Origin: Minisyncoccota bacterium
GTDB lineage: Bacteria; Patescibacteriota; Minisyncoccia; Phycocordibacterales; CAJBRS01
Reading direction: 5' to 3'
NCBI GenBank assembly: GCA_017881075.1
Contig: JADGRH010000003.1
Location: forward strand, 64,682-128,681
Length of the DNA: 64,000 bases
The position numbers and the translations under genes are program-made. The notes under the pieces are model-generated. The model saw nothing but the letters and a program-made list of their open reading frames with translations, had not been told where the DNA came from and searched no databases. Of the stretch, positions 3,738-47,104 are shown piece after piece (the first letter of the stretch is position 1; each line of letters starts with the position of its first letter).

Positions 3738-4505
3738 ATGGCTCAAAATTTATATCAGTTTTTAAAAAACATAGGCATTTCTCAAAAAGAGGTAAATGTT
3801 TACATCTATCTTTTGTCGGTGGAATCAGCTCTGCCAATGGAAATTGCTAAGGAGACCAATCTTAAGAGGTCCACTGTATATGTAATCCTCGAACTCCTAA
3901 AAGAGAAAGGGTTAGTGCGCGAGGTAGAGCGAGGCAAACGCTCCGCCTATATCTCGGAAGACCCGGAAAGAATCAGATTTCTTTTGGAACAACTTCGACT
4001 TCAGACGGAAAATAGTATTAAGGGATTGAATATCATAATTCCTCAACTGAAAGCCACTCTTCGAAAAGAAGGGGAGCCGCCACTGATCAGATTCTTTGAA
4101 GGAGAAAAAGCGGTTCAGGTCTCAATGGAGGAATTGGCGGACAATCCTAAATTTAGAAAAGAGTTAAATTATGATGTTTTTCCACTTGAGCTAATCTATA
4201 AATTATTCCAGAGAAAGAATTTGCGAAAATATATTAATCTTCGCATTCATAACAATGAAAACTTCAAAATCCTCTATACATCAGATGAAGGAGGGTTAAC
4301 CAACGCGGAGACACACGGACAAGAAGCGATCAAGATTGACCAAAAAGAATTTCCTCTATCATGTGACATCGCCATCTTTGAAGATGAGGTTAGAATTCAT
4401 ATGTTGGGTAAACCTATTTACGGCATATTGATTAAAAACTTGGAATTGGCCCAGACTCTCACTAGTATTATCAAATTGGCAATAAAAGGAGCCAAGGTAA
4501 ATTAG
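3738..4505 (+). CDS. TrmB-family winged-helix transcriptional regulator
   Basis: N-terminal HTH pattern Y.FLK..G.S..E..VY.YLL......EIA.ET.L.RSTVY.IL..L.EKGLV typical of TrmB; ~255 aa. Confidence 0.6.
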   Translation: MAQNLYQFLKNIGISQKEVNVYIYLLSVESALPMEIAKETNLKRSTVYVILELLKEKGLVREVERGKRSAYISEDPERIRFLLEQLRLQTENSIKGLNIIIPQLKATLRKEGEPPLIRFFEGEKAVQVSMEELADNPKFRKELNYDVFPLELIYKLFQRKNLRKYINLRIHNNENFKILYTSDEGGLTNAETHGQEAIKIDQKEFPLSCDIAIFEDEVRIHMLGKPIYGILIKNLELAQTLTSIIKLAIKGAKVN

Positions 4506-4858: not shown

Positions 4859-6139
4859 ATGAGTATACGTTTCGTTATCTCAGTTATGTTGGTTGGCCTT
4901 TACATGGCCATATCAATCCTGTATCCAGTAGCCCAAGGCCCGATCGAAGGAAAGATCGCGGCCAGTATGGTCCAAGATAGTGATGCGTCTTATGCAGCGG
5001 CTCACGCCCTGCTCACGACGCATTCGCCGATAACCATTATCGGTTGGGCAGTGTTCATAGCATTGCTCGTCATCTGGGTGCCAGTTTTACGGCGCGCCCT
5101 CAAGCGCCCCACTAAAACGGCAGCGACATTTCTCGGGTGTATCGCCTTTTTGGCGACCATTCTCACCACGGGATGTGTGGGACCTTATAAGGTAGAGAAG
5201 TTCGAGACCATCGAATCAAACGAGACGGCCTTCGTCGTTCCCTTGGAGGGTGCGACGCTCGCCAATCAAGCGAAGTTCATGTCTATCGACTATCTCAATT
5301 CGCCTGAAGTGAAAGTGGCGACCAAGCGGATCACTATTCCGCAACGGCAACGCGACACAGGACGGGTGGCCGGTAATTACGAATGGATTGACACCGTTCG
5401 CGTCATCAAGGTAAACCGGGCGCCTATCACCAGACAGTGGGTGAAGGCCTCAACACAAGGCACTTCTAAATCCGACGAGGCCATCGAGGTGGAGTCTAAA
5501 GAGTCAATCGACTTCTACACCGGAGCGGTCTGCAGCGGGTTTATCGCTGAAGAGGATGCGGCAAGGTTCCTCTATTATTTCGCCGGGAAACCTTTAAGCG
5601 AAGTGATGGACGAGAACGTACGCGGGTATGTTCAAAACCTGATGTGGGTGGAGTTTGGTACGCGGGACTTGACCGCTGCCAAAGAGGCCAAGAAAGAGAT
5701 CATGGATGCGGTTTCCAAATCGACGAAGGAGTTCTACTCCAAGCAAGGGATAACGATCTCTTACGTCGGTGGAGCTGAAGGTCTGACCTACAAGGATCCA
5801 AAGATCCAAGAATCCATCAACTCGGCCTTCATCGCCGAGAATGACCGCAAAGTGGCGGATCAGGAGAATCAGGCCCAAACGATTAGGAATACCAAATTGG
5901 TTTCCATCGCTACAGCACAGCGTCAGGCGGCTGAAGAGTTCGCCAAAGCGCAGAATGCCATGATTGCCAAGACCCAGCTCGAGATCCAAATGAAGCAGGC
6001 AGACGCCATGCTGGAGATCGCGCATAACTCGCACGGCATCAGCATCCAACCGGGTGCGATCTTGTCTGAAGGGTCGCCCTTCCTGTTTGGCCTGGATAAG
6101 GTCACGGGAGCTCGGCCGCCGGTCACTGCAAATAAGTAA
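4859..6139 (+). CDS. membrane-anchored SPFH/band-7-like protein (inferred), GC-rich
   Basis: N-terminal TM segments; C-terminal Ala/Gln/Glu-rich coiled coil resembling HflC/K tails; visibly higher GC than the backbone; SD AGGAGA upstream. Confidence 0.45.
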   Translation: MSIRFVISVMLVGLYMAISILYPVAQGPIEGKIAASMVQDSDASYAAAHALLTTHSPITIIGWAVFIALLVIWVPVLRRALKRPTKTAATFLGCIAFLATILTTGCVGPYKVEKFETIESNETAFVVPLEGATLANQAKFMSIDYLNSPEVKVATKRITIPQRQRDTGRVAGNYEWIDTVRVIKVNRAPITRQWVKASTQGTSKSDEAIEVESKESIDFYTGAVCSGFIAEEDAARFLYYFAGKPLSEVMDENVRGYVQNLMWVEFGTRDLTAAKEAKKEIMDAVSKSTKEFYSKQGITISYVGGAEGLTYKDPKIQESINSAFIAENDRKVADQENQAQTIRNTKLVSIATAQRQAAEEFAKAQNAMIAKTQLEIQMKQADAMLEIAHNSHGISIQPGAILSEGSPFLFGLDKVTGARPPVTANK

Positions 6140-6316: not shown

Positions 6317-6347
6317 AATCCGGCCGAAGCATTTGTCGGCCGGATTA
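6317..6347. terminator. conserved hairpin AATCCGGCCGA-N8-TCGGCCGGATT (family copy 1), bidirectional terminator
   Basis: perfect stem; A-run upstream and T/A-run downstream; sits between convergent genes; same arms as copies at 7708 and 9474. Confidence 0.65.
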
Positions 6348-6361
6348 TCAAAACCATTCGC

Positions 6362-6733
6362 TTAGCTCACGGATGATTGTGTGAGCTGGAGATCAAGAAG
6401 TCGGATTACTGTGTCGGGCACGTCGTCCTTGCGCGATGCATGACTACATCCGGCCGACATCATCAGTTGTTGGACCTTAAAGCATCCCGCCGCTGTTACT
6501 ATCGGCATGGCAGACTTCTGGCGCAATTCGCGAATGAAAGGTTCAGTATTATAGGTATAGCCCGGAACACAGCCATCAACGACTACCAGATCAAAAGGAT
6601 CCGAGCGGTCCAGGATTTTCTGGGCACCCTCCAAGTCAAACGCTTGGTTGATAACAACCTCGTATCTGCAAAGTTTCTTCTCCCAGTCGAGCTGGTACTG
6701 CGGGTTATCCTCTACAAGTAAGATTTTTTTCAT
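6362..6733 (-). CDS. stand-alone CheY-like receiver domain protein (canonical acidic pocket: LLVEDN .. DLVVVD .. T .. K)
   Basis: MKKILLVEDN, FDLVVVDGCVPG, PIVTAAG motifs; 123 aa; paralog of 7736..8089 and 9503..9856. Confidence 0.6.
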   Translation of the reverse strand: MKKILLVEDNPQYQLDWEKKLCRYEVVINQAFDLEGAQKILDRSDPFDLVVVDGCVPGYTYNTEPFIRELRQKSAMPIVTAAGCFKVQQLMMSAGCSHASRKDDVPDTVIRLLDLQLTQSSVS

Positions 6734-6793
6734 AATTCTAAATCGGATACTACATTAAATGCCAAAAAAATCAAAATCAGGTAGTATTAACCC

Positions 6794-7705
6794 ATGGATC
6801 AATCTCAAAACTCCACTAGAGAATATTCTGCCATTAGCCCAACATCTCGCAGCTCATTTTGGATGAAAACTTTCACCGACATTCCTTACGTGCGGGAAAT
6901 ATACGACGAGCTGGAAAAAGGGAAGCAGAGTGGAGCGGAAAGCAAAATCAGGGATTACGGAATCAATCATGTTGGTCTCTCAAGTATTGCTCCATATTTT
7001 GAGGCGAGATACTTAATCATTAATAGATTATTGAAAGAAGTTGGAGCGACACAGATTATTGAATTAGCTTCCGGCCTCACTCCTCGGGGTCTTGAGCTTA
7101 CCAAAGATCCAAATATCACTTTCATCGAATTAGACCTCCCTGATGTAATCGAAGAGAAAAAGAAAATAGTGGAAAATATTATAAGAGAGCATAAAATCGG
7201 CGATCGTAACAATTTGTATCTGGAAGCAGGAAGCGCCCTGGAAGAAGCGGATATCATGAAAGCCGCCTCTCATTTTGATGAAAAGAAAGAGATCGCTATT
7301 ATTAATGAAGGATTACTTCGCTATCTGAAAAGAGACGAACAGGCAAAAATGGCTCAGGCGATCTTACCCGTGCTTCAAAAATTCGGGGGAGTATGGATCA
7401 CCCCTGATATTGGCATCAGAGATAAAATGCTGGCAGGACAAGCGAAATTGTCGCCGATATTCATAGACAGAACTAAAAAGTTGGAAAAAATGACGGGCGC
7501 TGGAAATTTTTCCGACAACCTTTTCGCCGATGCTGCAGAAGCCAAGGCAATCTATGAAAAACTAGGATTTGAGATAGAGATGCATACTTACTCTGAAGTA
7601 TCCGATCAACTCGTTTCACCCACTAAACTCGGTCAACCAAAAGAGATTACAGACTCACTTATGGAATGGAGCAAGGTCTTTGTGATGCACCCAAAGACCA
7701 AATAA
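6794..7705 (+). CDS. class I SAM-dependent methyltransferase, leucine carboxyl methyltransferase (LCM)/TcmP-like
   Basis: IIELASGLTPRGLEL resembles the LCM motif VV.LGAGLDTR; acidic residue after beta2 (IELDLPD); 303 aa; leaderless-style start 6 nt after TAGTATTA. Confidence 0.5.
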   Translation: MDQSQNSTREYSAISPTSRSSFWMKTFTDIPYVREIYDELEKGKQSGAESKIRDYGINHVGLSSIAPYFEARYLIINRLLKEVGATQIIELASGLTPRGLELTKDPNITFIELDLPDVIEEKKKIVENIIREHKIGDRNNLYLEAGSALEEADIMKAASHFDEKKEIAIINEGLLRYLKRDEQAKMAQAILPVLQKFGGVWITPDIGIRDKMLAGQAKLSPIFIDRTKKLEKMTGAGNFSDNLFADAAEAKAIYEKLGFEIEMHTYSEVSDQLVSPTKLGQPKEITDSLMEWSKVFVMHPKTK

Positions 7706-7707
7706 AA

Positions 7708-7738
7708 AATCCGGCCAGAGAATTCACGGGCCGGATTA
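7708..7738. terminator. conserved hairpin AATCCGGCC-N12-GGCCGGATTA (family copy 2)
   Basis: same arms as 6317 and 9474; between convergent genes. Confidence 0.65.
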
Positions 7739-8089
7739 CGAAAAACTTCTGAGTCCTAACAGCATGATGATGGTATTTACCAAATCGTCAGGATGAGCCT
7801 CATGGGTGCATCGAAAATAATTCAACATAATCTGTCGGATACCGGGACTTTTGTCCACAACCACAATGGGTCCATTGCAATGAGGAGGAAGACTCTTCAG
7901 AAGTGCTCCGGTGTTGAACGTTTTTGACCCAACACAAGTTTCGACGGCTACAAGGTCATAACGATCAGATTCCTCAATCGCGAATCTAACGTCGTAGGCG
8001 TAGCTTGCGCTGACGTCATATTCCTCCAACCTCCTTTGCCACTCGGTCGCCAGGTCATTGTCATTAGTCACAATTAAGATATTCTTCAT
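7736..8089 (-). CDS. receiver-fold paralog with degenerate phospho-acceptor site (ILIVTNDND .. DLVAVETCVG)
   Basis: 117 aa; ~65% identical to 9503..9856; the Asp of the DLVxxD pocket is replaced by Glu and the beta4 Thr is absent. Confidence 0.55.
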   Translation of the reverse strand: MKNILIVTNDNDLATEWQRRLEEYDVSASYAYDVRFAIEESDRYDLVAVETCVGSKTFNTGALLKSLPPHCNGPIVVVDKSPGIRQIMLNYFRCTHEAHPDDLVNTIIMLLGLRSFS

Positions 8090-8219
8090 TAGTCTTTCCT
8101 CATATTACACAGCCTTCCTTGGAAATCAAGGTAGAAATGGAAGTTATACCGAAAATAAAAAAGCGGCCACCCCTTTCGAAGTGCCGCTTGTTTGAACGCG
8201 ATGCGCGCTAAGATACCGC

Positions 8220-9350
8220 TTACTCTCTTAGCATCAGCGAGACCGTGTCGGGGAACGTTGTTGTGTAATCCCCGAAGATCTGCATGCCGAAACTTTTCGG
8301 CGTCACTTTGTCCCAAGTGATCTTCTCGTTGGCACCGGCGCCGGAATATGATCCGACACTCATTGGGGATGTGTGGTACTCGACGAAACCTCCCCATGGT
8401 CTGATGAGCTTGTCCTGTAGACGATGTGATTCGTCTGCGAGGAAGTCATGCTTGAGGTGGGGGACAACGCAAATGGCGAAGTCTCCAGCAATGCCGCCAC
8501 CAAGCTGGACGAAAGCCAGCGGAGTTTTGCGGGTCACGTCCATGTAGAATTCCGCGAGCGCATGCATGTACGAAATCCCCGGAAGGACCACGTTCATGTC
8601 GATCGGCGCCTCGATCTTGTAATTTTTCAAGAACCAATGGTCGCCCTTGTAGCACGCCTGAGCAAAAATATTGCCCATCGTAGAATCTTCGAATCCAGGA
8701 ACGAAGAGCGGAATGTCGAGTTTTGCAGCTTTGCGAAGCCAACATTCTTCCGCATTGGCCGTCGGATCTTTTCTGATCAGATCGTGCTTGAACAGGTGAT
8801 AGAAATACTGATGCCAGAGTTTCCGCTCCTTATTTACTCCGGCGATCCTCCATTGCTTCATGAGCTTGGGCAGGATGACTCTGACCGATTCGTCTTCCGG
8901 CAGGATCGTGTCTGTGATTCGGCGGAAACGAAGGCGGCGAAGCTCCTCTTCCTGTTTGGGCGTCAAGGATTGATAGTTGGGAATGTAGACATAATACTGA
9001 TTTGCTGAGAATCGGTAGGCGCTTTCTTCCATGTTCGCGCCGGTAACTGACATTCCGGCGATGTATCCGGCGTCCATCAGTCTGGTGATGGGTACACCGA
9101 GCTGGAATGATGATCCGGCTCCGGCCATTGATAAGAATATCTTGCCGCCCTCTTCGCAGAAATCTCGAAGCCAAAGGCCGGCATCGACAGTTCTTCCTCC
9201 GTTGCAATGGCGCTTGTTCTGGACCAGTGAATTTGAGACGGGGCTGTCTGCGCTGGGGGTATAACGTCGTTCTCCCACAGTGATCATCTTGCGAAGCCCA
9301 GGACTGAGCTGAGCCATTTTTTGTTTAAGGGACATGATTTGATTTGACAT
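8220..9350 (-). CDS. deoxyhypusine synthase-like protein (DHS/homospermidine synthase family)
   Basis: Blocks matching eukaryotic/archaeal DHS: IPLFVPGFEDSTMGNIF ~ IPVFSPALTDGSLGDMIF, LGGGIAGDF ~ LGGGVVKHH, YSGAGANEKITWDKV ~ DSGARPDEAVSWGKI, C-terminal F.D..TTFP ~ YADASLVFP. Confidence 0.7.
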   Translation of the reverse strand: MSNQIMSLKQKMAQLSPGLRKMITVGERRYTPSADSPVSNSLVQNKRHCNGGRTVDAGLWLRDFCEEGGKIFLSMAGAGSSFQLGVPITRLMDAGYIAGMSVTGANMEESAYRFSANQYYVYIPNYQSLTPKQEEELRRLRFRRITDTILPEDESVRVILPKLMKQWRIAGVNKERKLWHQYFYHLFKHDLIRKDPTANAEECWLRKAAKLDIPLFVPGFEDSTMGNIFAQACYKGDHWFLKNYKIEAPIDMNVVLPGISYMHALAEFYMDVTRKTPLAFVQLGGGIAGDFAICVVPHLKHDFLADESHRLQDKLIRPWGGFVEYHTSPMSVGSYSGAGANEKITWDKVTPKSFGMQIFGDYTTTFPDTVSLMLRE

Positions 9351-9473
9351 AGTGCTTTCCTCGGTTTGTGTTGTTCTTCTCTTCTGAAATCATATTACTT
9401 AAATAGGGGATTAGTTCAAGTTATGGGTTTTCCAAATTTTGAGCGGGTTTTTCACGAAATTGAAGAAAATAAA

Positions 9474-9505
9474 AAATCCGGCCTGTGAATCGGTCGGCCG
9501 GATTA
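9474..9505. terminator. conserved hairpin AATCCGGCC-N12-GGCCGGATTA (family copy 3)
   Basis: same arms; lies directly 3' of receiver paralog 9503..9856. Confidence 0.65.
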
Positions 9506-9856
9506 AGAATAGCGCTTCAATTCAAGAAGAGTGACGATGAGAGACACCAACAAGTCCGGATGCGCGCCATGTGTGCATCCAAAATCTCTAATCATTGCCT
9601 GACGGATCTCCGAACTCTCGTCCACGATCACTATTGGTCCATTAGAATGGGCAGGGAGACTCTTGAGGAGTGGGCCCGTATTGAATGTCTTGGAGCCAAC
9701 GCAGGTCTCTACCGCCACGAGGTCATAACGGTCTTGATTGGAAACCGCATAACTTACGTCATAGGCGTAGCTTGCGTTGACTGCGTATTCATCCAGTCTA
9801 TTCCGCCAATCGGACAGATGGTCATTGTTAGTAGACACAATTAGGATAAACTTCAT
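9503..9856 (-). CDS. receiver-fold paralog with degenerate phospho-acceptor site
   Basis: MKFILIVSTNND .. YDLVAVETCVGSKTFNTG; 117 aa; paralog of 7736..8089. Confidence 0.55.
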   Translation of the reverse strand: MKFILIVSTNNDHLSDWRNRLDEYAVNASYAYDVSYAVSNQDRYDLVAVETCVGSKTFNTGPLLKSLPAHSNGPIVIVDESSEIRQAMIRDFGCTHGAHPDLLVSLIVTLLELKRYS

Positions 9857-9954
9857 ATTTCTATTTCCGATACTACATCAAATATCCCAAAAATCAATTT
9901 TTCCTGGACACCCCTTGAAATTGAAGAAAAAACAAAATCGGGTAGTATTACCTC

Positions 9955-10353
9955 ATGAACATACCAGCTTGGTATTCACAATTAATTAAACCTTCTTGGG
10001 CGCCACCATCGTGGCTCTTCGGGCCGGTATGGACATTTCTGTATGTCTTGATCGCCATTTCATTTGGCAAAGTATTTTTGATGGCATGGAAGAAAGAGAT
10101 TGCCCTCATGGTGGCCTTGCCGTTTTTACTCAATCTAATATTCAACTTCGCTTTCACACCCCTCCAATTTGTCCTCAAAAGCAACCTCCTCGCCGCCCTC
10201 GACATCCTTCTAGTTCTCGGCACTCTCATCTGGGCCATGCTGGCTATCTATCCCTATGCCAGATGGATCGCCTATATCCAAGTCCCATACCTCCTCTGGG
10301 TCCTCTTCGCCACCATTCTCCAATTAACGATTACGTATCTCAATCTAAATTAA
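9955..10353 (+). CDS. tspO: TspO/MBR family tryptophan-rich sensory protein
   Basis: KPSWAPPSWLFGPVWTFLY signature plus further TM helices; 132 aa (slightly short, so the N-terminus may be truncated or extended). Confidence 0.75.
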   Translation: MNIPAWYSQLIKPSWAPPSWLFGPVWTFLYVLIAISFGKVFLMAWKKEIALMVALPFLLNLIFNFAFTPLQFVLKSNLLAALDILLVLGTLIWAMLAIYPYARWIAYIQVPYLLWVLFATILQLTITYLNLN

Positions 10354-10754: not shown

Positions 10755-12608
10755 ATGATTCTATATAAAAATAATCTAAAGGATTTTAAAATTCACGTTG
10801 ATACTAATCAGATCGGGGATTTAATCGAGAAATCTTTTAGAGAAAAATTAGGGCACAAAGTTGCTCCAAATGAAAAAAGGTCATGGACTAATTCTATGTC
10901 GTTTATGGAGAAAATAGTCAGAAGGGCTGATCTTTCGGATACTTGCGGAGTTATGTTGGAATATATTATTCCAAACACTTCTAACAGAATCGACTTTTTA
11001 ATTTCCGGGGAAGACGAGAAAGGGAACAAGAATTTTATAATTATTGAATTGAAACAATGGGAAACATCAGAATCTACTGATAGAGATGGTGTAGTAAGGA
11101 CTTTTGTGGGAGGAGGAGTACGCGAAACTACGCACCCATCTTACCAGGCCCATTCCTATAAATTGTTTTTAAGTGACTACAATGAAAATATTGATTCTGG
11201 CATTCTTTCACCATACGCTTGCGCGTATCTGCATAATTATAAAGAGCGGAGTCCGGAGCCTCTAAAGGCTCAAATATATGAATCTGTTATTAAGGTAGCG
11301 CCAGTTTATTTTAAGGACGATTATGAAAAATTGGAGCAGTTTTTGCATAATTATGTTAGGTTCGGAAAAGGAGAAGAAATCTTGTATCAAATTGAAGCCG
11401 GCAGAATAAAACCTAGCAAAAAACTTATTGAGCATATTCAAAAAATGTATGAAGGAAACCAGGAATTTATATTACTGGATGAGCAAAAGGTGGCATATGA
11501 GACAGCTCGATCTGTAGCAAAGAAAGTTAAAGAAAAATCTGTCGTAATTATAAAAGGTGGTCCAGGGACGGGTAAATCTGTAATCTCAATGAATTTATTG
11601 GGAAGCCTATTAAAGGATGAACTTAATGTAAACTTTATTGCCCCTAACTCTGCCTTTAGAGAAGTAATGATTCATAGATTAGCAAGGAAGGAGACTAAAT
11701 TAAGGTTAAAAAACTTGTTTAAAGGCTCTGCTGGTTTTGTAAATGCCAAGAAAGACACATTTGATACTTTAATAGTGGATGAAGCACATAGATTAAAGAA
11801 AAAAGGTGCTTATCAATACAAGGGGATAAATCAGATAGAAGATATCGTTAATTCTGCTAGAACGTCTATCTTTTTTGTCGATGATAATCAGATGATTCGT
11901 CCAGACGATATAGGTTCAGTTCAGGAGATTAAAAGAGTGGCTGATAAAAATAAGGCAAGAATTTATGAAATAGAATTAGTCGCCCAATTTAGGTGTGCTG
12001 GGGCAGAAGGTTATCTTAATTGGCTCGACAATACATTACAGATTAAAGAGACAGCGAATTTTGATGGATGGGAGCAAAAAGATTTTGAGTTTAAGATTTT
12101 TAATGATCCTAACGACTTAAGGAAAATGATAAAAGAAAAGCATGATAAAGGATTTAATGCTCGAATTCTTGCTGGCTATGCTTGGAAGTGGACAAGTGTA
12201 GGGGAGGGCAATAAAAGTGGAGAAGTTGAAGATGTCTTAATCCCCGAATTCGATTTCAAAATGCCGTGGAATGCTCGACAAATTGGAACAACTTGGGCGG
12301 TTGATCCAAAAGGTATTGATCAGGCAGGATGCATTCATACTTCACAAGGTCTGGAATTTGACTACGTTGGAGTTTTGGTAGGCAATGATTTACGTTTTGA
12401 TTCCAAAAAACTTGACTACCATGCTCACTGGGTATCCTACAAAGATACGACGGGGAAAAAAGGGCTGAAAAATAACCCGGAAGAATTAACTAAATTAGTA
12501 AAAAATATCTACAAGGTTCTTATGAGCAGGGGTATGAAGGGATGCTATGTTTATTTTACTGACAAAGAAATGGAGAGATATTTTAAATCACGCTTAGGTA
12601 TCAAATAA
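10755..12608 (+). CDS. nuclease-helicase: N-terminal PD-(D/E)xK-like fold + P-loop SF1-like NTPase + DUF2075-type C-terminal region (Schlafen-helicase / Nhi-like architecture)
   Basis: N-term RIDFLI .. IIELKQWE (D .. ExK); Walker A VVIIKGGPGTGKSVIS; Walker B/DEAH LIVDEAHRL; 4-nt gap after the MazG-like gene (operon). Confidence 0.65.
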   Translation: MILYKNNLKDFKIHVDTNQIGDLIEKSFREKLGHKVAPNEKRSWTNSMSFMEKIVRRADLSDTCGVMLEYIIPNTSNRIDFLISGEDEKGNKNFIIIELKQWETSESTDRDGVVRTFVGGGVRETTHPSYQAHSYKLFLSDYNENIDSGILSPYACAYLHNYKERSPEPLKAQIYESVIKVAPVYFKDDYEKLEQFLHNYVRFGKGEEILYQIEAGRIKPSKKLIEHIQKMYEGNQEFILLDEQKVAYETARSVAKKVKEKSVVIIKGGPGTGKSVISMNLLGSLLKDELNVNFIAPNSAFREVMIHRLARKETKLRLKNLFKGSAGFVNAKKDTFDTLIVDEAHRLKKKGAYQYKGINQIEDIVNSARTSIFFVDDNQMIRPDDIGSVQEIKRVADKNKARIYEIELVAQFRCAGAEGYLNWLDNTLQIKETANFDGWEQKDFEFKIFNDPNDLRKMIKEKHDKGFNARILAGYAWKWTSVGEGNKSGEVEDVLIPEFDFKMPWNARQIGTTWAVDPKGIDQAGCIHTSQGLEFDYVGVLVGNDLRFDSKKLDYHAHWVSYKDTTGKKGLKNNPEELTKLVKNIYKVLMSRGMKGCYVYFTDKEMERYFKSRLGIK

Positions 12609-12658
12609 TTTATCTTTATTTTAGCGTTGCTTCATGATACACATGGTAGGTTGTCGTC

Positions 12659-12820
12659 ATGAAGAAACAAAAGATCAAAGATAGTGACAACGCCTATTTA
12701 ATAAGCAGTAACAACTATGAAGACGATAATTGCCCCATCTGCAATCTAATGAGGCGATGTGAAATAGAGGAAAGAGAACCCACCTCACAAGAGATTAAAG
12801 AGGTGATGAAATTTAAATGA
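12659..12820 (+). CDS. small CxxC zinc-ribbon-like protein (53 aa), speculative
   Basis: MKKQKIK .. CPICNLMRRC ..; not in the ORF track (under 60 aa); AT-rich. Confidence 0.25.
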   Translation: MKKQKIKDSDNAYLISSNNYEDDNCPICNLMRRCEIEEREPTSQEIKEVMKFK

Positions 12821-12910
12821 TCCTATTTATGCACGGCCTTTATCTAAAAAATGGCCAATGGACCAAAGAGAGAGCAGTAAAAATATCTGCGTATCATTTC
12901 ACTTATGGAT

Positions 12911-12932
12911 AATCCGGCCTGCTCTGCCACGC
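12911..12932. repeat. left arm of 22-bp terminal inverted repeat AATCCGGCCTGCTCTGCCACGC
   Basis: revcomp matches 13320..13342 at 21/22; shares the AATCCGGCC core with the three cassette terminators. Confidence 0.6.
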
Positions 12933-13319
12933 TTGTATTGCCCTCTACTTTTTTTATGGCATACTTAAAAAAGAAATCCATGACAGACCTAATCTGATCT
13001 TTAAATATAAACCCTATTTTGCAGGTATGAAGAGACAATAAAGCATCGATTAAAAAATAATATGACCAATAAATATAGCAATAATCTTGTTACATAGAAT
13101 TTCAAATTTACTTAAAATATGGCTCTAATCAAGAACTAATTAAGATATGCACAGCTTATCCACTGGTAAGCTATTTACAAAACTGCTAGATTATGATACA
13201 TTAAGAGAGGAATATTTCTTTTTCCCCTCTTGCTGATTATAATAAGCTTTTCTTTCATAATAGGAAAAATAATATTAGCTAAATACTTGACTCCAAAAAT
13301 TTTGGAGAGTATTATGCAA

Positions 13320-13342
13320 GCGCGGCAGAGCAGGCCGGATTA
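13320..13342. repeat. right arm of the 22-bp inverted repeat GCGCGGCAGAGCAGGCCGGATTA
   Basis: see 12911..12932; arms flank ~390 bp of AT-rich non-coding DNA. Confidence 0.6.
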
Positions 13343-13359
13343 TCAATAAATTAAATTAT

Positions 13360-13761
13360 ATGACCAACGACAAATCTTTTTTGGAGGATCTCTATACTGA
13401 CAGTGGGGGATTCGACCGCGAACGGGTAGTGCGGGTGCTCCAAACCATACTAACCATTCAGCGGGGCGACCATAAAGTCTTCTTTAAAAAAGAGGCAACA
13501 CTAGAAGCTGCGGACAAAATTTTGGCTTATGCGTTAGTAAAAAAGCTTTTAAAGACAGAGGGGGTAACTGAAACGAGTAGTGTCTCGGGAAAGGAACTGA
13601 AGAAGCAAACGGGTGTAAAGTCCGGGACGGTCGATTTTACAATTAAAAAACTTAAAGAGGAAGATGGTCTGCTTGTTGGCAGCGGTAGCAATTATGAAAT
13701 ACCAGCACACAAAGTTGAAGACATCTTAGAGCGTCTTGAAAAATGCGCTTCCAAAAAATAA
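13360..13761 (+). CDS. hypothetical protein with C-terminal winged-HTH-like motif
   Basis: SVSGKELKKQTGVKSGTVDFTIKKLKEEDGLLVG resembles a wHTH recognition helix/wing; first gene of a tight 4-gene operon. Confidence 0.4.
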   Translation: MTNDKSFLEDLYTDSGGFDRERVVRVLQTILTIQRGDHKVFFKKEATLEAADKILAYALVKKLLKTEGVTETSSVSGKELKKQTGVKSGTVDFTIKKLKEEDGLLVGSGSNYEIPAHKVEDILERLEKCASKK

Positions 13762-14206
13762 ATCTATGGAAAATAACATAAAAAAAATACTCGGAGAAAT
13801 ACTCACATCCATAAAGAGCCTTGAAAAACGAGTTACTCTCATAGAAAGCAAGACACCGAGCATGAGTACACCATCACATGATCTTCCCATTGCCTCGAAG
13901 AAGATGTCGATAAAGGAGTTCCTAATTGATCGCTCTCCAGCAAATGGAGTACAAACAACTCTCGCGGTCGCATATTATCTAGAAAAATATGACAAGATCT
14001 CGCCATTTAATGCCAGTGACATAGAGAAAGCATTTCGTTCCGCTAAGGAACCAGTGCCCAACAATATCAATGATAAAGCAAATATGTGTATTAAAAATGG
14101 TCATTTAATGGAAGGAGAGGATAAGAAAGACAATATGAAAGCGTGGGTAGTCACTCGAAGCGGAGAACAATACGTTCAGGAAAAATTTGATCGTTATAGT
14201 CATTAA
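13736..14206 (+). CDS. hypothetical protein; C-terminal domain shared with the next gene
   Basis: 26-nt overlap with the upstream gene; C-terminal pattern (hydrophobic stretch .. SPFNASD .. K.G .. KAWVVTRSGEQY) parallels 14236..14784. Confidence 0.4.
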   Translation: MKNALPKNKSMENNIKKILGEILTSIKSLEKRVTLIESKTPSMSTPSHDLPIASKKMSIKEFLIDRSPANGVQTTLAVAYYLEKYDKISPFNASDIEKAFRSAKEPVPNNINDKANMCIKNGHLMEGEDKKDNMKAWVVTRSGEQYVQEKFDRYSH

Positions 14207-14235
14207 AAATAAAATTATTCACTAATATAAATATT

Positions 14236-14784
14236 ATGTCTGAAGCAGAAATAGTAGAAATCGTAGGGAAAATTGTTACTGCACTCACTCCTCTTTCTCA
14301 TGAGGAACGACAGAGGGCGGTGCAAGCGTCTTTAAATGTATTTGGTGAATCCATGCTCAGGTCTACACAAAGAAAAGACGAACTCAATGAAATTCCCTCT
14401 GCATTTAGTGAACGCGCGCGGATATGGATTAAACAGAACGAGCTTTCTTTGGAAAATTTAGAACAAATTTTTCATATTACTGATACTGGAGCAGAATTGA
14501 TTATTCAAGAAGTGCCGGGAGGAAAGGATAACAAACCCAGGGTGCTAAATGTGTATGTTCTTTCTGGCGTAGCTTCCCTACTCACCTCAGAAAATTCTAA
14601 TTTCGACGACAAAGTTGCAAGAACCATATGTGAATCATTTGGATGTTACGATCCAACAAATCACACTAAATACCTAAAGAAAAGTAAATTCTTTACAGGA
14701 TCCAAAAAAACAGGATGGACCTTGACTGCTCAGGGTTTAAAACATGCAGCCATGTTAGTTAGAGAACTGAGTAAGCCCCAATAG
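14236..14784 (+). CDS. hypothetical protein; C-terminal domain paralogous to the previous gene
   Basis: C-terminal .. VYVLSGVASLL .. NFDDKVARTI .. TGWTLTAQGLKHAA aligns with the preceding protein's tail. Confidence 0.4.
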   Translation: MSEAEIVEIVGKIVTALTPLSHEERQRAVQASLNVFGESMLRSTQRKDELNEIPSAFSERARIWIKQNELSLENLEQIFHITDTGAELIIQEVPGGKDNKPRVLNVYVLSGVASLLTSENSNFDDKVARTICESFGCYDPTNHTKYLKKSKFFTGSKKTGWTLTAQGLKHAAMLVRELSKPQ

Positions 14785-14786
14785 AT

Positions 14787-15527
14787 ATGATTTTCACATT
14801 TAAAAATATTCCGATCAATCTTTCTGAAAAATTGGTTGAGGAATACTTGGAAATAAAGAAACGCCATTCAATGAGTGATTGGGGCCCAAGTCAATTAAAA
14901 GGCGGTAGATTTGCAGAAGCTATGTTACGCATTTTCCAACATTTGCTCGGTATTTCTATTACACCATTTGGGACCAACATTCCAAACAAAGACCGTATTT
15001 TAAATGCTGTAAAAATTCACCCGTCATTGGATGACCACATTCGTCAAAAAGTAGCACCTCTTATAAGACTTCTTCTAGATTTTCGTAATAATCGAGATGT
15101 AGCACACCTCGGAGGATTCAATGCAAATAGCATGGATACTCTTTTTGTGATGACAACAGCGACATGGATTTTGTGTGAACTGATCCGTGTTTATGGAGGG
15201 CAAAGTATGGACACCGCTCAAAAACTAGTAGACTCACTTTCCGTTAAAGAGTATCCAGTGCTAATGGAGTTCGAAGGAGAGCTCTTTATTACTCGACACA
15301 ATCTCAACGCAGAACAAGAAGTGCTAATATTTTTGTATAAAAATCGTAAAGCAGGCTACAATTTTTTGTCTTCAAAGACAAAGGACAGCAATTCTTCACG
15401 TTTTAAGAAAATTTTAGAGAAAATGGTTGCGGTAAAGTTCATTGGCAGCAAGGCAAATCAGTACTTTATCATGCCTCGTGGAATCGAGCGTGTAGAAAAA
15501 GAACGCTTATTGATCTATTCAAACTAG
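14787..15527 (+). CDS. hypothetical protein with HEPN-like R-x6-H motif (RNNRDVAH), candidate RNase
   Basis: 3-nt gap from the previous gene; motif LLLDFRNNRDVAHLGGF fits the HEPN Rx4-6H signature within a predicted helical context; inference only. Confidence 0.35.
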   Translation: MIFTFKNIPINLSEKLVEEYLEIKKRHSMSDWGPSQLKGGRFAEAMLRIFQHLLGISITPFGTNIPNKDRILNAVKIHPSLDDHIRQKVAPLIRLLLDFRNNRDVAHLGGFNANSMDTLFVMTTATWILCELIRVYGGQSMDTAQKLVDSLSVKEYPVLMEFEGELFITRHNLNAEQEVLIFLYKNRKAGYNFLSSKTKDSNSSRFKKILEKMVAVKFIGSKANQYFIMPRGIERVEKERLLIYSN

Positions 15528-15612
15528 GAATCAACAAGGCCAAGGCTGTTTTTTATATCTATTTCATCTTTTCTTCATAAATTTTTCATATTTAAAATGT
15601 TATGATGTGTGA

Positions 15613-16083
15613 ATGCAAAAGGACTTTACCTTTCAATTAATAAAGGGAAAAATCAGCGAAACTATATTTGATCAGATGTTTCGAGAAGCAGGGGAGTTTA
15701 CAGTTATCCCCTTTGGTTATGAAGCTTTAGTCCCGGAAATTGCTCAGCTTGCTCGTTCATTAGAACGCAAGGAAGTTCTGGACTCAATTAGGAATAGTCC
15801 TGATTTTGCACTGGTCTCTCATAGTCAGAAAAAGGTATTTCTAGTTGAAGTGAAATATAGGTCGCATTTACACGAAGATGACGTGTTAAATATTGCTCAG
15901 ATGGTTCACGACAGATGGAAACTAGCGTGGTTGTTCATTGCTACTCCGGAAGGATTCTATTTTGATAGTTGCTCGGATGTCTTAAATACTAAGACCATTA
16001 ATAAACTTAAACCAACATGGATCAATGCCGAACTCCAGGAAAAGTATTTAGCAGTAATGAATAAGTTTCAAGTTAACCATTAA
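15613..16083 (+). CDS. PD-(D/E)xK restriction-endonuclease-fold protein
   Basis: E(A)L .. PDFALVSH .. VFLVEVKYR = canonical E .. PD .. (D/E)xK arrangement; 156 aa. Confidence 0.5.
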   Translation: MQKDFTFQLIKGKISETIFDQMFREAGEFTVIPFGYEALVPEIAQLARSLERKEVLDSIRNSPDFALVSHSQKKVFLVEVKYRSHLHEDDVLNIAQMVHDRWKLAWLFIATPEGFYFDSCSDVLNTKTINKLKPTWINAELQEKYLAVMNKFQVNH

Positions 16084-16102
16084 GTAGAGGTAAGAATTTC
16101 TT

Positions 16103-16861
16103 ATGTTCTCAGATCCAATCATTGAAAATTTAAAGTATTACGTTTATATACTTGTTGATCCGAGCAATAATAAGCCTTTTTATATTGGAAAAGGAATAGG
16201 AAATAGGGTTTTTTCCCATCTAAAAAATGAAATTGAAGACGAGTCTAAGATTTCATTAAAACAAGCGCTTATTAAAAATATTCAGGATCAAGGGAAAGAT
16301 GTTGAGATATACATAGTACGACACGGTTTAAATGAGAAGGAGGCATTTGAGATTGAGGCGACACTTATTGATTTTATCCAACTTAGAAATCTTACTAATG
16401 AAATAGTAGAGCACGACTATAAGGAAGAAATACCAGCTAAAAATCTGGCTAATATTGTTTTAGGACATCATGCGGGAGAAAGGGGGCTTATGACGCTAAA
16501 TGAAATACTCCAGTTGTATGGTGCAGAAGAGGCTAATATTACCGACCCAGTAATAATAATTAATATAAATCGAAAATATAAACGGGGCATGAGTCCGAAT
16601 GAAATATATGAAGCAACTCGAGCATCTTGGGTCATAAGCAAAGATAGGTCACAGAAAGCTAAATTTGTTCTCGCATCATTTCGTGGAATAGTAAAAGAAG
16701 TTTTCTATGTTAATCATTGGCAACAATCTAAGAATTCAAACCGCTTAGAATTTGAAGGAGGTGTTGCTCAGTTAGAGATTGCTGAAAAATATAGAAACAA
16801 AGCTATAACTAATTATTTGAAGACGGGGGCACAAAACCCAATTAGATACGTAAATTGTTAG
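16103..16861 (+). CDS. GIY-YIG nuclease domain protein with ~150-aa C-terminal extension
   Basis: YYVYILVDPSNNKPFYIGKGIGNRVFSH .. E (GIY/YIG with Arg, His and Glu); 20-nt gap after the PD-(D/E)xK gene. Confidence 0.6.
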   Translation: MFSDPIIENLKYYVYILVDPSNNKPFYIGKGIGNRVFSHLKNEIEDESKISLKQALIKNIQDQGKDVEIYIVRHGLNEKEAFEIEATLIDFIQLRNLTNEIVEHDYKEEIPAKNLANIVLGHHAGERGLMTLNEILQLYGAEEANITDPVIIININRKYKRGMSPNEIYEATRASWVISKDRSQKAKFVLASFRGIVKEVFYVNHWQQSKNSNRLEFEGGVAQLEIAEKYRNKAITNYLKTGAQNPIRYVNC

Positions 16862-16963
16862 ATTAAATTGTACTATTCTCATGCCAGATGAATTGGAAAA
16901 TCAGGAATTAAAGGGGTCAGAAGTCATTTTTATATTAAATTTTATCTTTCTGTTGTATTAATC

Positions 16964-17107
16964 ATGGACTCCGATGAAATCTTAGAATTAGTTAAAGATG
17001 GCGTGATAGAGCCGGATCAGGTGGAAGATTTTCAGAATTTGGATGAGGAGATCCAGCAAATGGTGGCGGATGGGGATTTGGATGCAGATGAGGCGTTGAG
17101 TTTATAA
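16964..17107 (+). CDS. 47-aa highly acidic small protein (MDSDEILELVKDGVIEPDQVEDFQNLDEEIQQMVADGDLDADEALSL)
   Basis: not in the ORF track (under 60 aa); strongly acidic; sits between the GIY-YIG and NYN genes. Confidence 0.3.
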   Translation: MDSDEILELVKDGVIEPDQVEDFQNLDEEIQQMVADGDLDADEALSL

Positions 17108-17157
17108 ATTTATCTTTTCTTGACGGGGAATTCATCTGCAAGTTCTATTCTATATGA

Positions 17158-17661
17158 GTGGAAAATGAGTTTAAGAATCTTGCTTTTATAGATGGACAGA
17201 ATCTGTATATGGGTACGTCAAAGCGAGAGATCGATCCGTGGGAAATTAACCTTACCCGATTCTGTGTATATCTGGATGAAAAATACAATGTCGGTAATGC
17301 CTATTATTTTTTAGGATATGTGCAGGAGGCAAATCAAGAACTCTACGAAGAAATACAAAAGGCTGGTTTCTTGCTAGTATTTCGAGAACATAATCCAGCG
17401 ATGATTGGGAAGAAAAAAGGAAATGTGGATTCAGATATTGTCTTTCATGTCATGAAAAATCTATACAAGAAAGAGAATTTTAAAAAGATAATCCTTGTTT
17501 CTGGAGATGGTGACTATAAATTACTGGTTGATTTTTTGATAGCAGAGAACCGATTCGAGAAGATATTGTTTCCGAATAGAGAATTTGCGTCTTCTTTGTA
17601 CAAGAAACTCGGTTCGGAATATTTTGATTACTTAGAAAATATAAAGACATATATCACATAA
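17158..17661 (+). CDS. NYN-domain (PIN-like, LabA/YacP-like) ribonuclease
   Basis: AFIDGQNLY .. D .. VSGDGDY signature of NYN domains; terminator hairpin follows at about 17671..17708. Confidence 0.7.
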   Translation: MENEFKNLAFIDGQNLYMGTSKREIDPWEINLTRFCVYLDEKYNVGNAYYFLGYVQEANQELYEEIQKAGFLLVFREHNPAMIGKKKGNVDSDIVFHVMKNLYKKENFKKIILVSGDGDYKLLVDFLIAENRFEKILFPNREFASSLYKKLGSEYFDYLENIKTYIT

Positions 17662-30009: not shown

Positions 30010-30061
30010 GAGTCATTAAACGGACTTGTCTTATTTAAAAAATTTTATATAATAGACTCTT

Positions 30062-30453
30062 CTTGAATCGGGTAATTGCTCCGCCACCTAAAAAGGGCGG
30101 GGAGGAAAGTCCGAACACAGGCCCTTCACCAAAATTGGTGAAGGGAAGAGTAGCGGGTAATACCCGTCTGGAGCAATCCACGAGGTGCGAACAGAGACGA
30201 ACCGGTTAAGTCCGGGTGAAACGGCTAAATCCTTACTTCTGTGCAAGGCCGCGCGCCAATTTTGTCCGCTAGAGGCGGTTACAAAATTGAGCGTCCCGAG
30301 ATTTTCGAGGGATTGATCCTTCGACAAGCTCAGGGCACTCAATCTTGCAGCCACCTGCAGTGGGCAAGATTGGTGAGTGCCGCTTGACTCCGAGAGTAAT
30401 CGAGGAGCTAGATAAATAATTATCGATAACAGAATTCGGCTTATAGATTCAAG
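30062..30453 (+). ncRNA. rnpB: RNase P RNA (bacterial type A)
   Basis: P4 GGAGGAAAGTCCG.ACACAGG and 3' ACAGAATTCGGCTTAT conserved blocks; P1 pairing CTTGAATC/GATTCAAG; the minus-strand ORF 30088..30504 is spurious. Confidence 0.85.
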
Positions 30454-30464
30454 AAGACAAATCA

Positions 30465-30494
30465 AAAGCCTCCGCCTAACGGCGGAGGCTTTTG
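30465..30494 (+). terminator. terminator hairpin after rnpB
   Basis: AAAGCCTCCGCC taac GGCGGAGGCTTT. Confidence 0.6.
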
Positions 30495-30497
30495 CTA

Positions 30498-30590
30498 TTT
30501 GCATCGTCTTTTCAAGATGTTATAATAAATGAAAGCTAATGAAAGAATTTGCATCGTCTTTTCAAAATGTTATAATAAATGAAAGCTAAT
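30498..30590 (+). promoter_or_regulatory. tandemly duplicated (~50 bp x2) promoter segment carrying an extended -10 TGTTATAAT
   Basis: TTTGCATCGTCTTTTCAA[G/A]ATGTTATAATAAATGAAAGCTAATG occurs twice with one mismatch; the second copy ends at the ATG of 30589. Confidence 0.55.
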
Positions 30591-40573: not shown

Positions 40574-41296
40574 TTAAGAATTAGTTTTTTTGATACCTTT
40601 AATTTTTTCAAACACCAGAATCAATATAATGATAGAAAGCCAAACTAAGCCAAAAATGATTATCAGACTGTGTCCACTATCGTTTATTATAGAAAAATTA
40701 AAGAGAGCATGCAAGATGATTGCTAGGGCAATACCACATAGAAGGAAAAGCCTTTTCTGCCACTTATTTTTATAAAAAGCAAAGGCAATAAAGACTCCTA
40801 TGATGGCTGAAGAAATAACATGGAGAAGATTGGCTCCGACAAAACGAAGATTACCGGTAATAATTCCTCTTAGATCATCATTGGACAAGAAAGGTTGAAT
40901 AAGGAAGAAAATGTTTTCAAGAGCGGCGAATCCTAGGGCGCTTGTAATAAGGTAAATAACGCAATCAATAGGCTCGTCGTCATGTTTTGTTTTTAAAGCG
41001 CTCCAAGAAGCCGCCCAGTATTTCAAAAGTTCCTCAACAACAGCAAATAAAAGGAAGGCGATAATAGCTGTTTCTTCAAAGTGAACGCTAATGAAGTGCT
41101 CAAAAGGAAGAGCTATTACCACCGCAATCATACCGGCGATGAAGGACCGGATGATTATCCGTTTCGGTTCAGGATGAAGCTTGTCTTCCTGGAGCCAGAA
41201 CCAAAGCCAAATGATGGAGGGAAGAATACCGGCGCCGACAGCGTAAATTAAAGCCCTGAAGATCATATAATTAAGTCGAAACTGGCCATTTTGCAA
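40574..41296 (-). CDS. PrsW-family intramembrane protease (inferred)
   Basis: EELLKY (EExxK), FAALENIFF, HALFNF motifs across TM helices. Confidence 0.5.
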   Translation of the reverse strand: MQNGQFRLNYMIFRALIYAVGAGILPSIIWLWFWLQEDKLHPEPKRIIIRSFIAGMIAVVIALPFEHFISVHFEETAIIAFLLFAVVEELLKYWAASWSALKTKHDDEPIDCVIYLITSALGFAALENIFFLIQPFLSNDDLRGIITGNLRFVGANLLHVISSAIIGVFIAFAFYKNKWQKRLFLLCGIALAIILHALFNFSIINDSGHSLIIIFGLVWLSIIILILVFEKIKGIKKTNS

Positions 41297-46432: not shown

Positions 46433-46570
46433 ATAGCCGAGAGCGTGCCTAAAGCATTACAGCTTGCTATAAGTAGCATAATGTGATAGGCTTAAAGTCT
46501 AGTTACAGTCTCCTTGGTGGCAACACTGAAATACTCTTGTAATAGAAGCTCGCCGCGTGCGGCATATCTT

Positions 46571-47104
46571 ATGATTAGTCCAAAACAACTGACAAAGATG
46601 CAGGGGGTATTAACGAGCGCCCACCTCGACTTTGAAAGGGCGCTTAATAAACATGCCTTTTTCAAGGTAAATGACCATAATATCGGTGAAGATTTGGTAC
46701 AAGACACTTTCCTAAAAACATGGGCCTACCTTGTAAAAGGTGGGGAGATTGTTTTGATGAGAGCTTTTTTATATCACATCCTCAACAATCTCATTATTGA
46801 TCAATATCGAAAACCAAAAACAACCTCTCTTGACGTTTTGCTTGAAAAAAACTTTGAGCCGAGCACCGATATTACCGATAGCCTTTTTAATATCATTGAT
46901 GGCAAAGCAGCCGCTTTACTCATTGAACGTCTGCCTGAAAAATACCAAAAGGTCATGAAGATGCGACACATAGAGCTTCTGTCACTTAAAGAAATATCCG
47001 CCATCACCGGACAATCCCAAAATACCATTGCCGTTCAAACCCATCGCGGATTAATGAAACTGAAGGTGTTGTATGATAATCCTCTACCGGGTGGAGCAGA
47101 TTAG
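46571..47104 (+). CDS. ECF-type sigma-70 family RNA polymerase sigma factor (start uncertain; ORF opens at 46514)
   Basis: region 2 DLVQDTFLKTWAY; region 4 HTH LSLKEISAITGQSQNTIAVQTHRGLMKLK. Confidence 0.65.
   Translation: MISPKQLTKMQGVLTSAHLDFERALNKHAFFKVNDHNIGEDLVQDTFLKTWAYLVKGGEIVLMRAFLYHILNNLIIDQYRKPKTTSLDVLLEKNFEPSTDITDSLFNIIDGKAAALLIERLPEKYQKVMKMRHIELLSLKEISAITGQSQNTIAVQTHRGLMKLKVLYDNPLPGGAD

Follow-up and report, generated by a model that had tools for sequence, protein, structure and literature searches.

We analysed a stretch of 64,000 nucleotides (nt) of contig JADGRH010000003.1 (assembly GCA_017881075.1) from a Minisyncoccota bacterium, a host belonging to the candidate phyla radiation (CPR); this whole stretch is referred to as the window. 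It carries three minus-strand open reading frames (ORFs) for small response regulators (RR), which had been singled out in a preliminary description of the same DNA. RR1 (positions 6362–6733) is predicted to encode a stand-alone receiver of 123 amino acids (aa), whereas RR2 (7736–8089) and RR3 (9503–9856) are predicted to encode stand-alone, aspartate-less pseudo-receivers of 117 aa each. All three ORFs were recovered at the positions reported before, as was the identity of about 65% between RR2 and RR3: the two align without gaps at 65% identity (E = 8e-57). RR1 and RR2 are 32% identical (E = 2e-21). Given these E-values the three genes are true paralogs and do not resemble each other by chance. 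The proteins of 117–123 aa are single-domain proteins, as the structural models and the family profile described below span nearly their full length and no output domain is present. A search of all window ORFs with that profile yielded no further copy.

A word-indexed search among 5.8 billion protein clusters returned only the paralogs themselves and no ortholog above approximately 35% identity, and when the three-sequence alignment was run against the contigs of species-representative genomes, not one of the 456 pattern matches was confirmed. RR1, RR2 and RR3 were seen on one NCBI contig and in one sequencing run. In a neighbor-joining tree they fall into a single clade, which also includes one further protein (P0007). 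A phage origin of the genes was considered and rejected: among 2.9 million viral contigs there was one weak, partial match.

Each of the three genes is preceded by a promoter-like element on the minus strand. For RR1 this element is TTGATTT-N13-TGTAGTAT at positions 6747–6774, a predicted −35 hexamer together with an extended −10 element. The same sequence pattern, TTGATTT-N13-TGTAGTAT, is located upstream of RR3 (9870–9897), and TTGATTT-N13-TGTAATAT upstream of RR2 (8102–8129). Within the 64 kb the common pattern TTGATTT-N13-TGTARTAT was found at exactly three places, one upstream of each RR gene, with an expected number of 0.00. At the other end of each gene a putative terminator is found, likewise on the minus strand. 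The one of RR1 (6317–6346) was detected in a terminator scan and consists of the hairpin AATCCGGCC-N12-GGCCGGATT followed by a run of T (repeat family D3). Hairpins with the same 9+9 nt stem follow RR2 (7708–7737) and RR3 (9475–9504); that of RR2 is also situated 3 nt past the stop codon of a convergent methyltransferase-like gene described below. The hairpin pattern is present exactly three times in the window (expected 0), in all cases directly 3' of an RR gene, and it is absent from the other loci compared, except for the Logan assembly of the same genome (L001). The simplest history would be a repeated, within-lineage duplication of a self-contained promoter–ORF–terminator cassette, after which the RR2/RR3 branch presumably lost its phospho-acceptor pocket. 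The stems AATCCGGCC and GGCCGGATT are identical in all three cassettes even though the ORFs go down to 32% aa identity and the 12-nt loops differ. They are more conserved than a generic GC-rich terminator requires; gene conversion might account for this, or the stems might serve as a recombination site or as a palindrome bound by a protein.

Against the Pfam model Response_reg (PF00072), RR1 scored 20.2 bits (E = 7e-4), which is below the gathering score of 30.2 bits. RR2 and RR3, searched singly, matched nothing in Pfam or NCBIfam, and a search of the PDB sequences with RR2 gave nothing significant. As none of the three proteins reaches the gathering score of PF00072, they would be absent from published receiver censuses, and their homology to receivers is established only transitively, via the clade introduced in the next paragraph. 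We built AlphaFold2 (AF2) models of RR1 and RR2, using alignments of this clade; RR3 is 65% identical to RR2. Both models show the (βα)5 order of elements of a receiver and are of high confidence, with a predicted local distance difference test (pLDDT) of 95.6 and a predicted template modelling score (pTM) of 0.88 for RR1, and a pLDDT of 90.1 and a pTM of 0.84 for RR2. In a Foldseek search of the PDB the 50 best matches to RR1 were all receiver domains or receiver-derived constructs, with template modelling (TM) scores of 0.69–0.79. RR2 matched receivers almost exclusively, the best match being the pseudo-receiver of FrzS (PDB entry 2gkg, E = 1.4e-6, TM 0.77). For both models the TM scores to many solved receivers were within 0.69–0.79. 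The profile and structure-prediction checks that had been proposed in the preliminary description thus uphold the receiver (CheY-like) fold by three routes, namely the clade profile, AF2 and Foldseek.

The clade to which the three proteins belong was delineated by an exhaustive HMMER search with a three-sequence profile, which gave at least 349 representatives (counted at 50% identity) at E ≤ 1e-3 and 25 at E ≤ 1e-10. A word-indexed search with a 60-member alignment yielded 1246 clusters. The members are coherent proteins of about 115 aa with the consensus KKVLIVED…DLIVMDACVPG..PNT.PLV..R.TF.GPMIA.SS…YR..L..AGCDHE..K..VP…LGL, which can be shortened to the signature …EDD…D-x-C-V-P-G…N-T…S-S…G-C-x-H…K. 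Fifty out of 60 members matched PF00072 at E < 0.01 (best E = 8e-12), and the clade mostly scores under the Response_reg threshold of Pfam. The clade profile retrieved almost only response-regulator or receiver chains from the PDB, with E-values down to 5e-10; the sole clear exception among 39 matches is a receiver-like protein designed de novo. Within the receiver superfamily, the clade forms a divergent branch. RR1–RR3 score 88–124 bits against its profile, all three having been included in the alignment from which the profile was built. Clade members come mainly from CPR-like genomic contexts, and the few named sources are CPR bacteria and DPANN archaea. A metagenome scan added 7 true clade loci, the other 60 being generic regulators that were matched through the KVLIVED motif.

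Two cysteines are characteristic of the clade. The first is located two residues after the acceptor aspartate (D+2) in 248 of 260 domains, the second six residues before the conserved lysine (K−6), inside the G-C-x-H motif, in 244 of 260. There is no aromatic residue at K−3. For receivers such a signature as a whole is uncommon, and it might indicate redox sensitivity. RR2 (residues 52 and 94) and RR3, although degenerate, have kept both cysteines. An intramolecular disulfide or a metal site between the two cysteines was considered and judged unlikely by analogy with CheY, in which we take position D+2 to lie at the top of the sheet and position K−6 at the α4–β5 turn at its bottom. Some clade members are fused into tandem pairs (P0004, encoded at positions 8001–8705 of locus L002, and P0009), and at locus L097 (5297–6357) two members are encoded by adjacent genes. 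Both halves of P0009 have degenerate pockets, reading NEEAR and SNAAR at the five positions, an independent loss of the pocket after duplication. The extra domains fused to some members (P0019, P0088, P0102, P0119, P0124, P0140 and others) had no significant match in Pfam and gave no hint of their function.

For a census of the phospho-acceptor pocket, 260 clade domains including RR1–RR3 were aligned to the profile and the five catalytic columns were read. The first acidic position (residue 8 in RR2) is Glu or Asp in 252 of the 260 domains, the second (residue 9) is Asp in 251, the acceptor (residue 50) is Asp in 250, the Thr/Ser position (residue 79) is Ser in 249, and the lysine position (residue 100) is Lys in 250. 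The complete quintet is present in 236 domains, and on these grounds the clade as a whole looks phosphorylation-competent. RR1 has four of the five residues (Glu8, Asp9, Asp53 and Lys102, with Ala82 at the Thr/Ser position), a pattern that is shared with four other members. RR2 (Thr, Asn, Glu, Asp, Pro) and RR3 (Ser, Thr, Glu, Asp, Pro) have none. Among the 260 domains a loss of all five residues is seen only in RR2, in RR3 and in one of the two halves of the tandem protein P0009. No other single-domain member found is as degenerate as RR2 and RR3, and P0009 is the only comparable case. Strictly defined, a pseudo-receiver lacks at least one of the five residues. All three proteins belong to this class, RR1 for want of the Thr/Ser and RR2 and RR3 for want of all five. 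RR2 and RR3 are in addition aspartate-less (Glu50), whereas RR1 keeps its acceptor (Asp53).

These data sharpen what had been described before. The preliminary description assigned a canonical pocket to RR1 (LLVEDN, DLVVVD, T, K). The two motifs and the lysine are indeed there, but the threonine is not: Ala82 aligns with the serine of the clade and with that of a KdpE receiver, and Thr80, which had been taken for the conserved threonine, lies two residues upstream, inside β4. For RR2 and RR3 the 260-domain alignment corroborates the exchange of the acceptor Asp for Glu and the loss of the Thr/Ser in β4, which is now an Asp. These two losses had been named, yet the account was incomplete, because the acidic pair and the lysine (now Pro100) are gone as well. 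The motif DLVAVETCVG is found in both proteins as quoted, whereas the N-terminus of RR3, which reads ILIVSTNND, differs slightly from the form given there. The gradient from canonical to degenerate pockets is therefore real but steeper than described, with four out of five residues on one side and none on the other.

RR2 and RR3 show signs of having been maintained. A Nei–Gojobori comparison of the two genes gave a nonsynonymous divergence (dN) of 0.26 and a synonymous divergence (dS) of 1.32, i.e. dN/dS = 0.19, a ratio that is approximate since dS is near saturation; it points to clear purifying selection. Conservation is unevenly distributed over the fold. Strand β3 (5 of 5 residues), the β3–α3 loop (TCVGSKTFNT, 10 of 10) and helix α3 (5 of 6) are nearly unchanged between RR2 and RR3, and 24 of the 25 residues from 42 to 66 are identical. 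The diverged elements are α1 (5 of 11 identical), α4 (4 of 10) and the β1–α1 loop (0 of 3). The non-catalytic signature of the clade is also preserved in both proteins, namely Cys52 (D+2), Val53, Asn59–Thr60, Gly73–Pro74 and Cys94.

The preliminary description reported neither a histidine kinase nor an HPt gene in the 64 kb. In agreement with this, a Pfam scan of nearly all ORFs of at least 110 aa (smaller ORFs were not scanned) gave no HisKA, HATPase_c or Hpt match. The mean density of kinases in CPR genomes is 0.289 per 100 genes, and kinases are missing altogether from 19% of the CPR metagenome-assembled genomes (PMC10805038). With about 65 genes in the window approximately 0.2 kinases are expected, and the absence of a kinase is therefore uninformative. 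The Logan assembly L001 extends about 2.3 kb past the start of the window, where it encodes Peptidase_M48, NUDIX and LemA proteins. The only other signalling-type genes in the window form a cluster that is not of the two-component type; they encode an extracytoplasmic-function (ECF)-type sigma factor (46514–47104), a PAS protein (47210–47791) and a PP2C phosphatase (48694–49476). The PAS-only protein (193 aa, with a coiled coil) was considered as a truncated kinase and rejected, since neither a HisKA nor a HATPase domain is present in it and an H-box is not evident.

With moderate confidence we propose that the locus arose from one orphan gene for a stand-alone receiver by expansion within this lineage, in the course of which RR2 and RR3 became phosphorylation-independent, protein-binding pseudo-receivers, while RR1 is probably phosphorylatable. 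This proposal builds on the receiver fold, the paralogy, the loss of the pocket, the selective constraint, the cassette structure and the lack of a conserved neighbour (see below) that we observe here. The duplicated unit would have comprised the promoter-like element, the ORF and the hairpin terminator as one self-contained cassette. RR1, which retains the acidic pair, the acceptor aspartate and the lysine, could probably still receive a phosphoryl group from an unlinked kinase or from a small-molecule donor. RR2 and RR3 would be small protein-binding modules that most likely work independently of phosphorylation. Their likely contact face comprises β3, the β3–α3 loop, α3 and β4; we propose this surface because it is the best conserved between the two proteins. 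A role independent of phosphorylation is the best reading since RR2 and RR3 cannot be conventional phospho-acceptors. The preliminary description had suggested a family of phosphorylation-independent adaptor or regulator proteins, each tied to one enzyme cassette. The first half of this suggestion is supported for RR2 and RR3; the tie to enzyme cassettes is not supported. Some points weigh against our proposal. The promoters and terminators are consensus-level matches and predicted as such, the near-saturated dS makes the dN/dS of RR2 and RR3 only approximate, and the binding surface was derived from two sequences. Moreover, Ala82 makes RR1 itself a pseudo-receiver by the strict definition (PMC12632262), and its phosphorylation may have been lost, too.

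RR2 and RR3 might instead serve as decoys or antagonists. Being unphosphorylated, they would mimic RR1 and compete for its kinase, its phosphatase or its downstream partner, and thereby tune or insulate the RR1 pathway. They are paralogs of RR1 in the same genome, they retain the non-catalytic clade residues (C52, V53, N59, T60, G73, P74 and C94), and the promoter-like element common to all three genes suggests co-expression. Helix α1, on the other hand, is the usual kinase-docking helix of receivers, and it is identical at only 5 of 11 positions even between RR2 and RR3; overall, RR1 is only about 33% identical. We consider such a role rather unlikely, and it would be a special case of the proposed protein-binding function and not a true alternative to it.

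It is improbable, in our view, that the remodelled pocket (Glu50, Cys52 and Asp79, with His96 and His99 nearby) binds a metal ion or a small molecule in place of the phosphoryl group. The replacement residues are identical in RR2 and RR3, and the complete conservation of the β3–α3 loop (10 of 10) contrasts with that of the β1–α1 loop (0 of 3). Ligand-binding pseudo-receivers are also known; the one of ShkA reportedly binds cyclic di-GMP. The pocket of RR2 and RR3, however, displays no known ligand-binding motif, and His99 is probably directed away from it, if we are right in likening this residue to V108 of CheY, which we assume to point away from the pocket. We regard as equally speculative a more far-reaching view, in which the whole clade would serve ultra-small cells as a signalling module that needs no kinase and is driven by metabolic phosphodonors or the thiol redox state, with RR2 and RR3 rebuilt to a phosphorylation-free ligand or metal pocket (Glu50, Cys52, Asp79).

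The three RR genes are interspersed with genes of other families. A protein of 303 aa resembling the LCM-type S-adenosylmethionine-dependent methyltransferases is encoded on the plus strand at 6794–7705, divergent from RR1 and convergent with RR2. It scores 42 bits against Pfam LCM and 36 bits against TIGR00027, the latter being under the cutoff. Between RR3 and RR2, and on the same strand as these (minus), a protein of the deoxyhypusine synthase (DS) superfamily is encoded at 8220–9350 (376 aa, Pfam DS 78.7 bits). On the far side of RR3, and divergent from it, a TspO/MBR membrane protein (132 aa, Pfam TspO_MBR 101 bits) is encoded on the plus strand at 9955–10353. A MazG-like protein is also encoded near the RR genes, and a TrmB-family regulator further to the left. 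The intergenic region between RR1 and the LCM-like gene (6734–6796) is about 75% homologous to its duplicated counterpart between RR3 and the TspO gene (9857–9957), and the homology (repeat families D4, D5 and D6) extends as far as the ATG of the gene on the plus strand. In both regions a conserved TAGTAT precedes the start of this gene by only about 7 nt (6745–6796 and 9906–9957). This suggests leaderless or nearly leaderless transcripts of the LCM-like and TspO genes, issuing from a putative, duplicated back-to-back promoter.

The DS-like protein is far below every NCBIfam equivalog cutoff (best score 54.7 bits versus 450) and appears to be a member of a widespread, apparently unnamed branch of the family. 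At least 551 homologs were found in CPR bacteria, Planctomycetota, Myxococcota, Acidobacteriota and other phyla, with 38–42% identity among the 80 that were kept. At the loci of these 80 homologs, with flanks of up to 8 kb to either side, neither a clade RR nor an LCM-like gene, TspO or any other neighbour from the window was present. Likewise, an all-against-all ORF comparison of 12 non-redundant clade loci revealed no shared family beyond the RR itself, and LCM-like homologs were found neither near clade members at these 12 loci nor near the DS-like homologs at the 80 others. At the six clade loci for which Pfam gene lists were available the RR gene is solitary among housekeeping genes (ribosomal proteins, tRNA synthetases, RuvABC, GlmS and others) and has no adjacent kinase and no DS-like or LCM-like neighbour. 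A TrmB-family regulator is found near a clade RR at two of the 12 loci, in the window at 3738–4505, at a distance of 1.9 kb to RR1, and in the form of a homolog at 4886–5704 of locus L098 (approximately 200 nt away from the RR), a proximity that may be coincidental. Shared synteny on account of the equal length (376 aa) of the DS-like protein and of the neighbour of the tandem protein P0004 was considered and rejected, as BLASTP shows no similarity between the two.

These neighbourhoods speak against the idea of the preliminary description that each RR is tied to one enzyme cassette. Combined with the potential phosphomimetic role of the Glu that was also suggested there, this idea would hold that Glu50 locks RR2 and RR3 in the "on" state and that each paralog is a dedicated adaptor for the adjacent LCM-like, DS-like or TspO gene. 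Glu is the commonest replacement of the acceptor aspartate and can partly activate some regulators (PMC12632262, PMC4395418), and the divergent pairs RR1/LCM and RR3/TspO, with their homologous intergenic regions, could be co-regulated. A glutamate mimic is thought to act, however, by engaging the conserved Thr and Lys (PMC12632262). In RR2 and RR3 these partners have been replaced by Asp79 and Pro100, which makes a phosphomimetic Glu unlikely, and the metal-binding acidic pair is lost as well. Each RR gene furthermore appears to have its own promoter-like element and terminator, no neighbour is conserved at the 12 clade loci, and neither clade RRs nor LCM-like genes nor TspO occur within 8 kb of the 80 DS-like homologs. 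Neither co-transcription nor a conserved neighbourhood, as would be expected of an operon-linked adaptor, is thus apparent for RR1–RR3, and we consider the combined idea quite improbable.

That RR2 and RR3 are decaying, non-functional duplicates on their way to being lost is very unlikely. All five catalytic residues are gone, to be sure, and orthologs above approximately 35% identity are missing from the 5.8 billion protein clusters. But the ORFs are intact and of equal length, they have kept 65% aa identity without insertions or deletions despite a dS of about 1.3, the AF2 fold is confident, and the promoter-like and terminator elements are conserved. Simple decay is difficult to reconcile with the selective constraint expressed in the dN/dS of 0.19. 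Finally, although RR2 and RR3 alone have no Pfam, NCBIfam or significant PDB sequence match, the proposition that the RR proteins represent another flavodoxin-like family has next to no probability and is excluded for RR1–RR3, because homology leads from RR2 and RR3 via RR1 and the clade to PF00072 and the PDB receivers, and because the best Foldseek matches are nearly all receivers.

Pseudo-receivers, orphan regulators and stand-alone receivers are already well known. Pseudo-receivers account for about 6–13% of receiver domains; their commonest replacements are Glu for the acceptor, Asn for the second acidic residue and Ala for the Thr, and their switching is largely not understood (PMC12632262). 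RR2 and RR3 resemble the aspartate-less receivers and pseudo-receivers described so far (PMC4395418, PMC12632262) in that they combine a receiver fold with the loss of the acceptor Asp, the replacement being the commonest one (Glu). Two further common replacements are found in the Asn at the second acidic position of RR2 and in the Ala at the Thr/Ser position of RR1, and all three proteins are orphans, as are most of the characterised atypical regulators. Unlike most aspartate-less receivers, in which the first acidic residue and the Lys are usually kept (PMC4395418), RR2 and RR3 lose all five residues at once. The changes of Lys to Pro and of Thr to Asp, the lack of an output domain and the CPR host set them apart as well.

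The best structural match to RR2, FrzS of Myxococcus xanthus (PDB entries 2gkg and 2i6f), shares 24% identity with it at TM scores of 0.77–0.79. The FrzS pseudo-receiver binds SgmX via its α3–β4–α4 surface (PMC12632262), which overlaps the best-conserved segment of RR2 and RR3. FrzS differs from RR2, however, by a long C-terminal coiled coil, where RR2 has no extra domain, by an Ala at the acceptor position and by not being an orphan. The phmmer E-values to the FrzS chains (0.47–1.1) are not significant either, so that the likeness is one of fold and does not amount to membership. With the stand-alone regulators CheY, Spo0F and DivK the RR proteins share the length of about 120 aa, the receiver-only architecture and, presumably, an action through protein–protein contacts; RR1 and 236 of the 260 clade domains also retain a pocket that looks competent for phosphorylation. 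In contrast to these, no chemotaxis, phosphorelay or kinase gene was detected near the RR genes in the window scans. The clade moreover has a Cys at D+2, an N-T in the region of the usual Gly at D+8 and a G-C-x-H before the Lys, and it lacks the aromatic residue at K−3; RR2 and RR3, as judged from their residues, should not be phosphorylatable on Asp.

What is new here is the CPR host, the complete loss of the pocket in a stand-alone domain including the change of Lys to Pro, the series from near-canonical to degenerate within one genome, and a sizeable clade, mainly from CPR and DPANN sources and mostly below the Pfam threshold, with a Cys at D+2. CPR bacteria have very few two-component genes, and to our knowledge no pseudo-receiver has been studied in them. 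In one and the same genome the locus brings together a near-canonical parent (RR1) with two copies that are wholly degenerate yet kept by selection. Such a natural series could help to ask what function is left to a receiver fold when its phosphorylation chemistry has been lost. As the clade is mostly missed by standard annotation, signalling proteins would be under-counted in CPR and DPANN organisms. Neither the series nor the missed clade overturns the present understanding of receivers.

The remainder of the window has the gene content of a bacterial chromosome; it encodes seven tRNAs, RNase P RNA, NrdAB, ValS, FtsAZ, MurJ, LepA and a single-chain PurL. Among the closest relatives listed for this LepA (72–85% identity), those with a name come from metagenome-assembled genomes of Candidatus Pacebacteria, Parcubacteria or Paceibacterota, which marks the organism as a CPR (Patescibacteria) bacterium. 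The region from 10755 to 17661 has a low GC content (0.34–0.37 as compared to about 0.44) and contains defence-type genes as well as several ORFs without a family. The defence-type genes encode a helicase similar to the Schlafen-group-3/Nhi/AbiO proteins (10755–12608), a GIY-YIG protein of the PD-T4-3 type (16103–16861, PADLOC 180 bits) and a NYN-domain protein (17158–17661). This region is probably a defence island. Although it begins only about 900 nt from RR3, RR1–RR3 match none of the PADLOC models. PurL (formylglycinamidine ribonucleotide (FGAM) synthase, 56779–60615) is a full-length single chain of 1278 aa that scores 1467 bits. As far as we know, purine synthesis de novo is usually missing from CPR bacteria, and the presence of this gene may be due to horizontal transfer or to an atypically complete metabolism. 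ValS (41271–43343) comprises 690 aa as compared to about 860 aa in the equivalog models; it matches in two stretches, and the C-terminal extension is seemingly gone. This may be a trait of a reduced genome or an issue of assembly or a frameshift. The RNase P RNA (class A, 30060–30459) scores 113 bits versus a gathering score of 100, which is consistent with a divergent lineage, and a minus-strand ORF that overlaps it (30088–30504) is almost certainly spurious.

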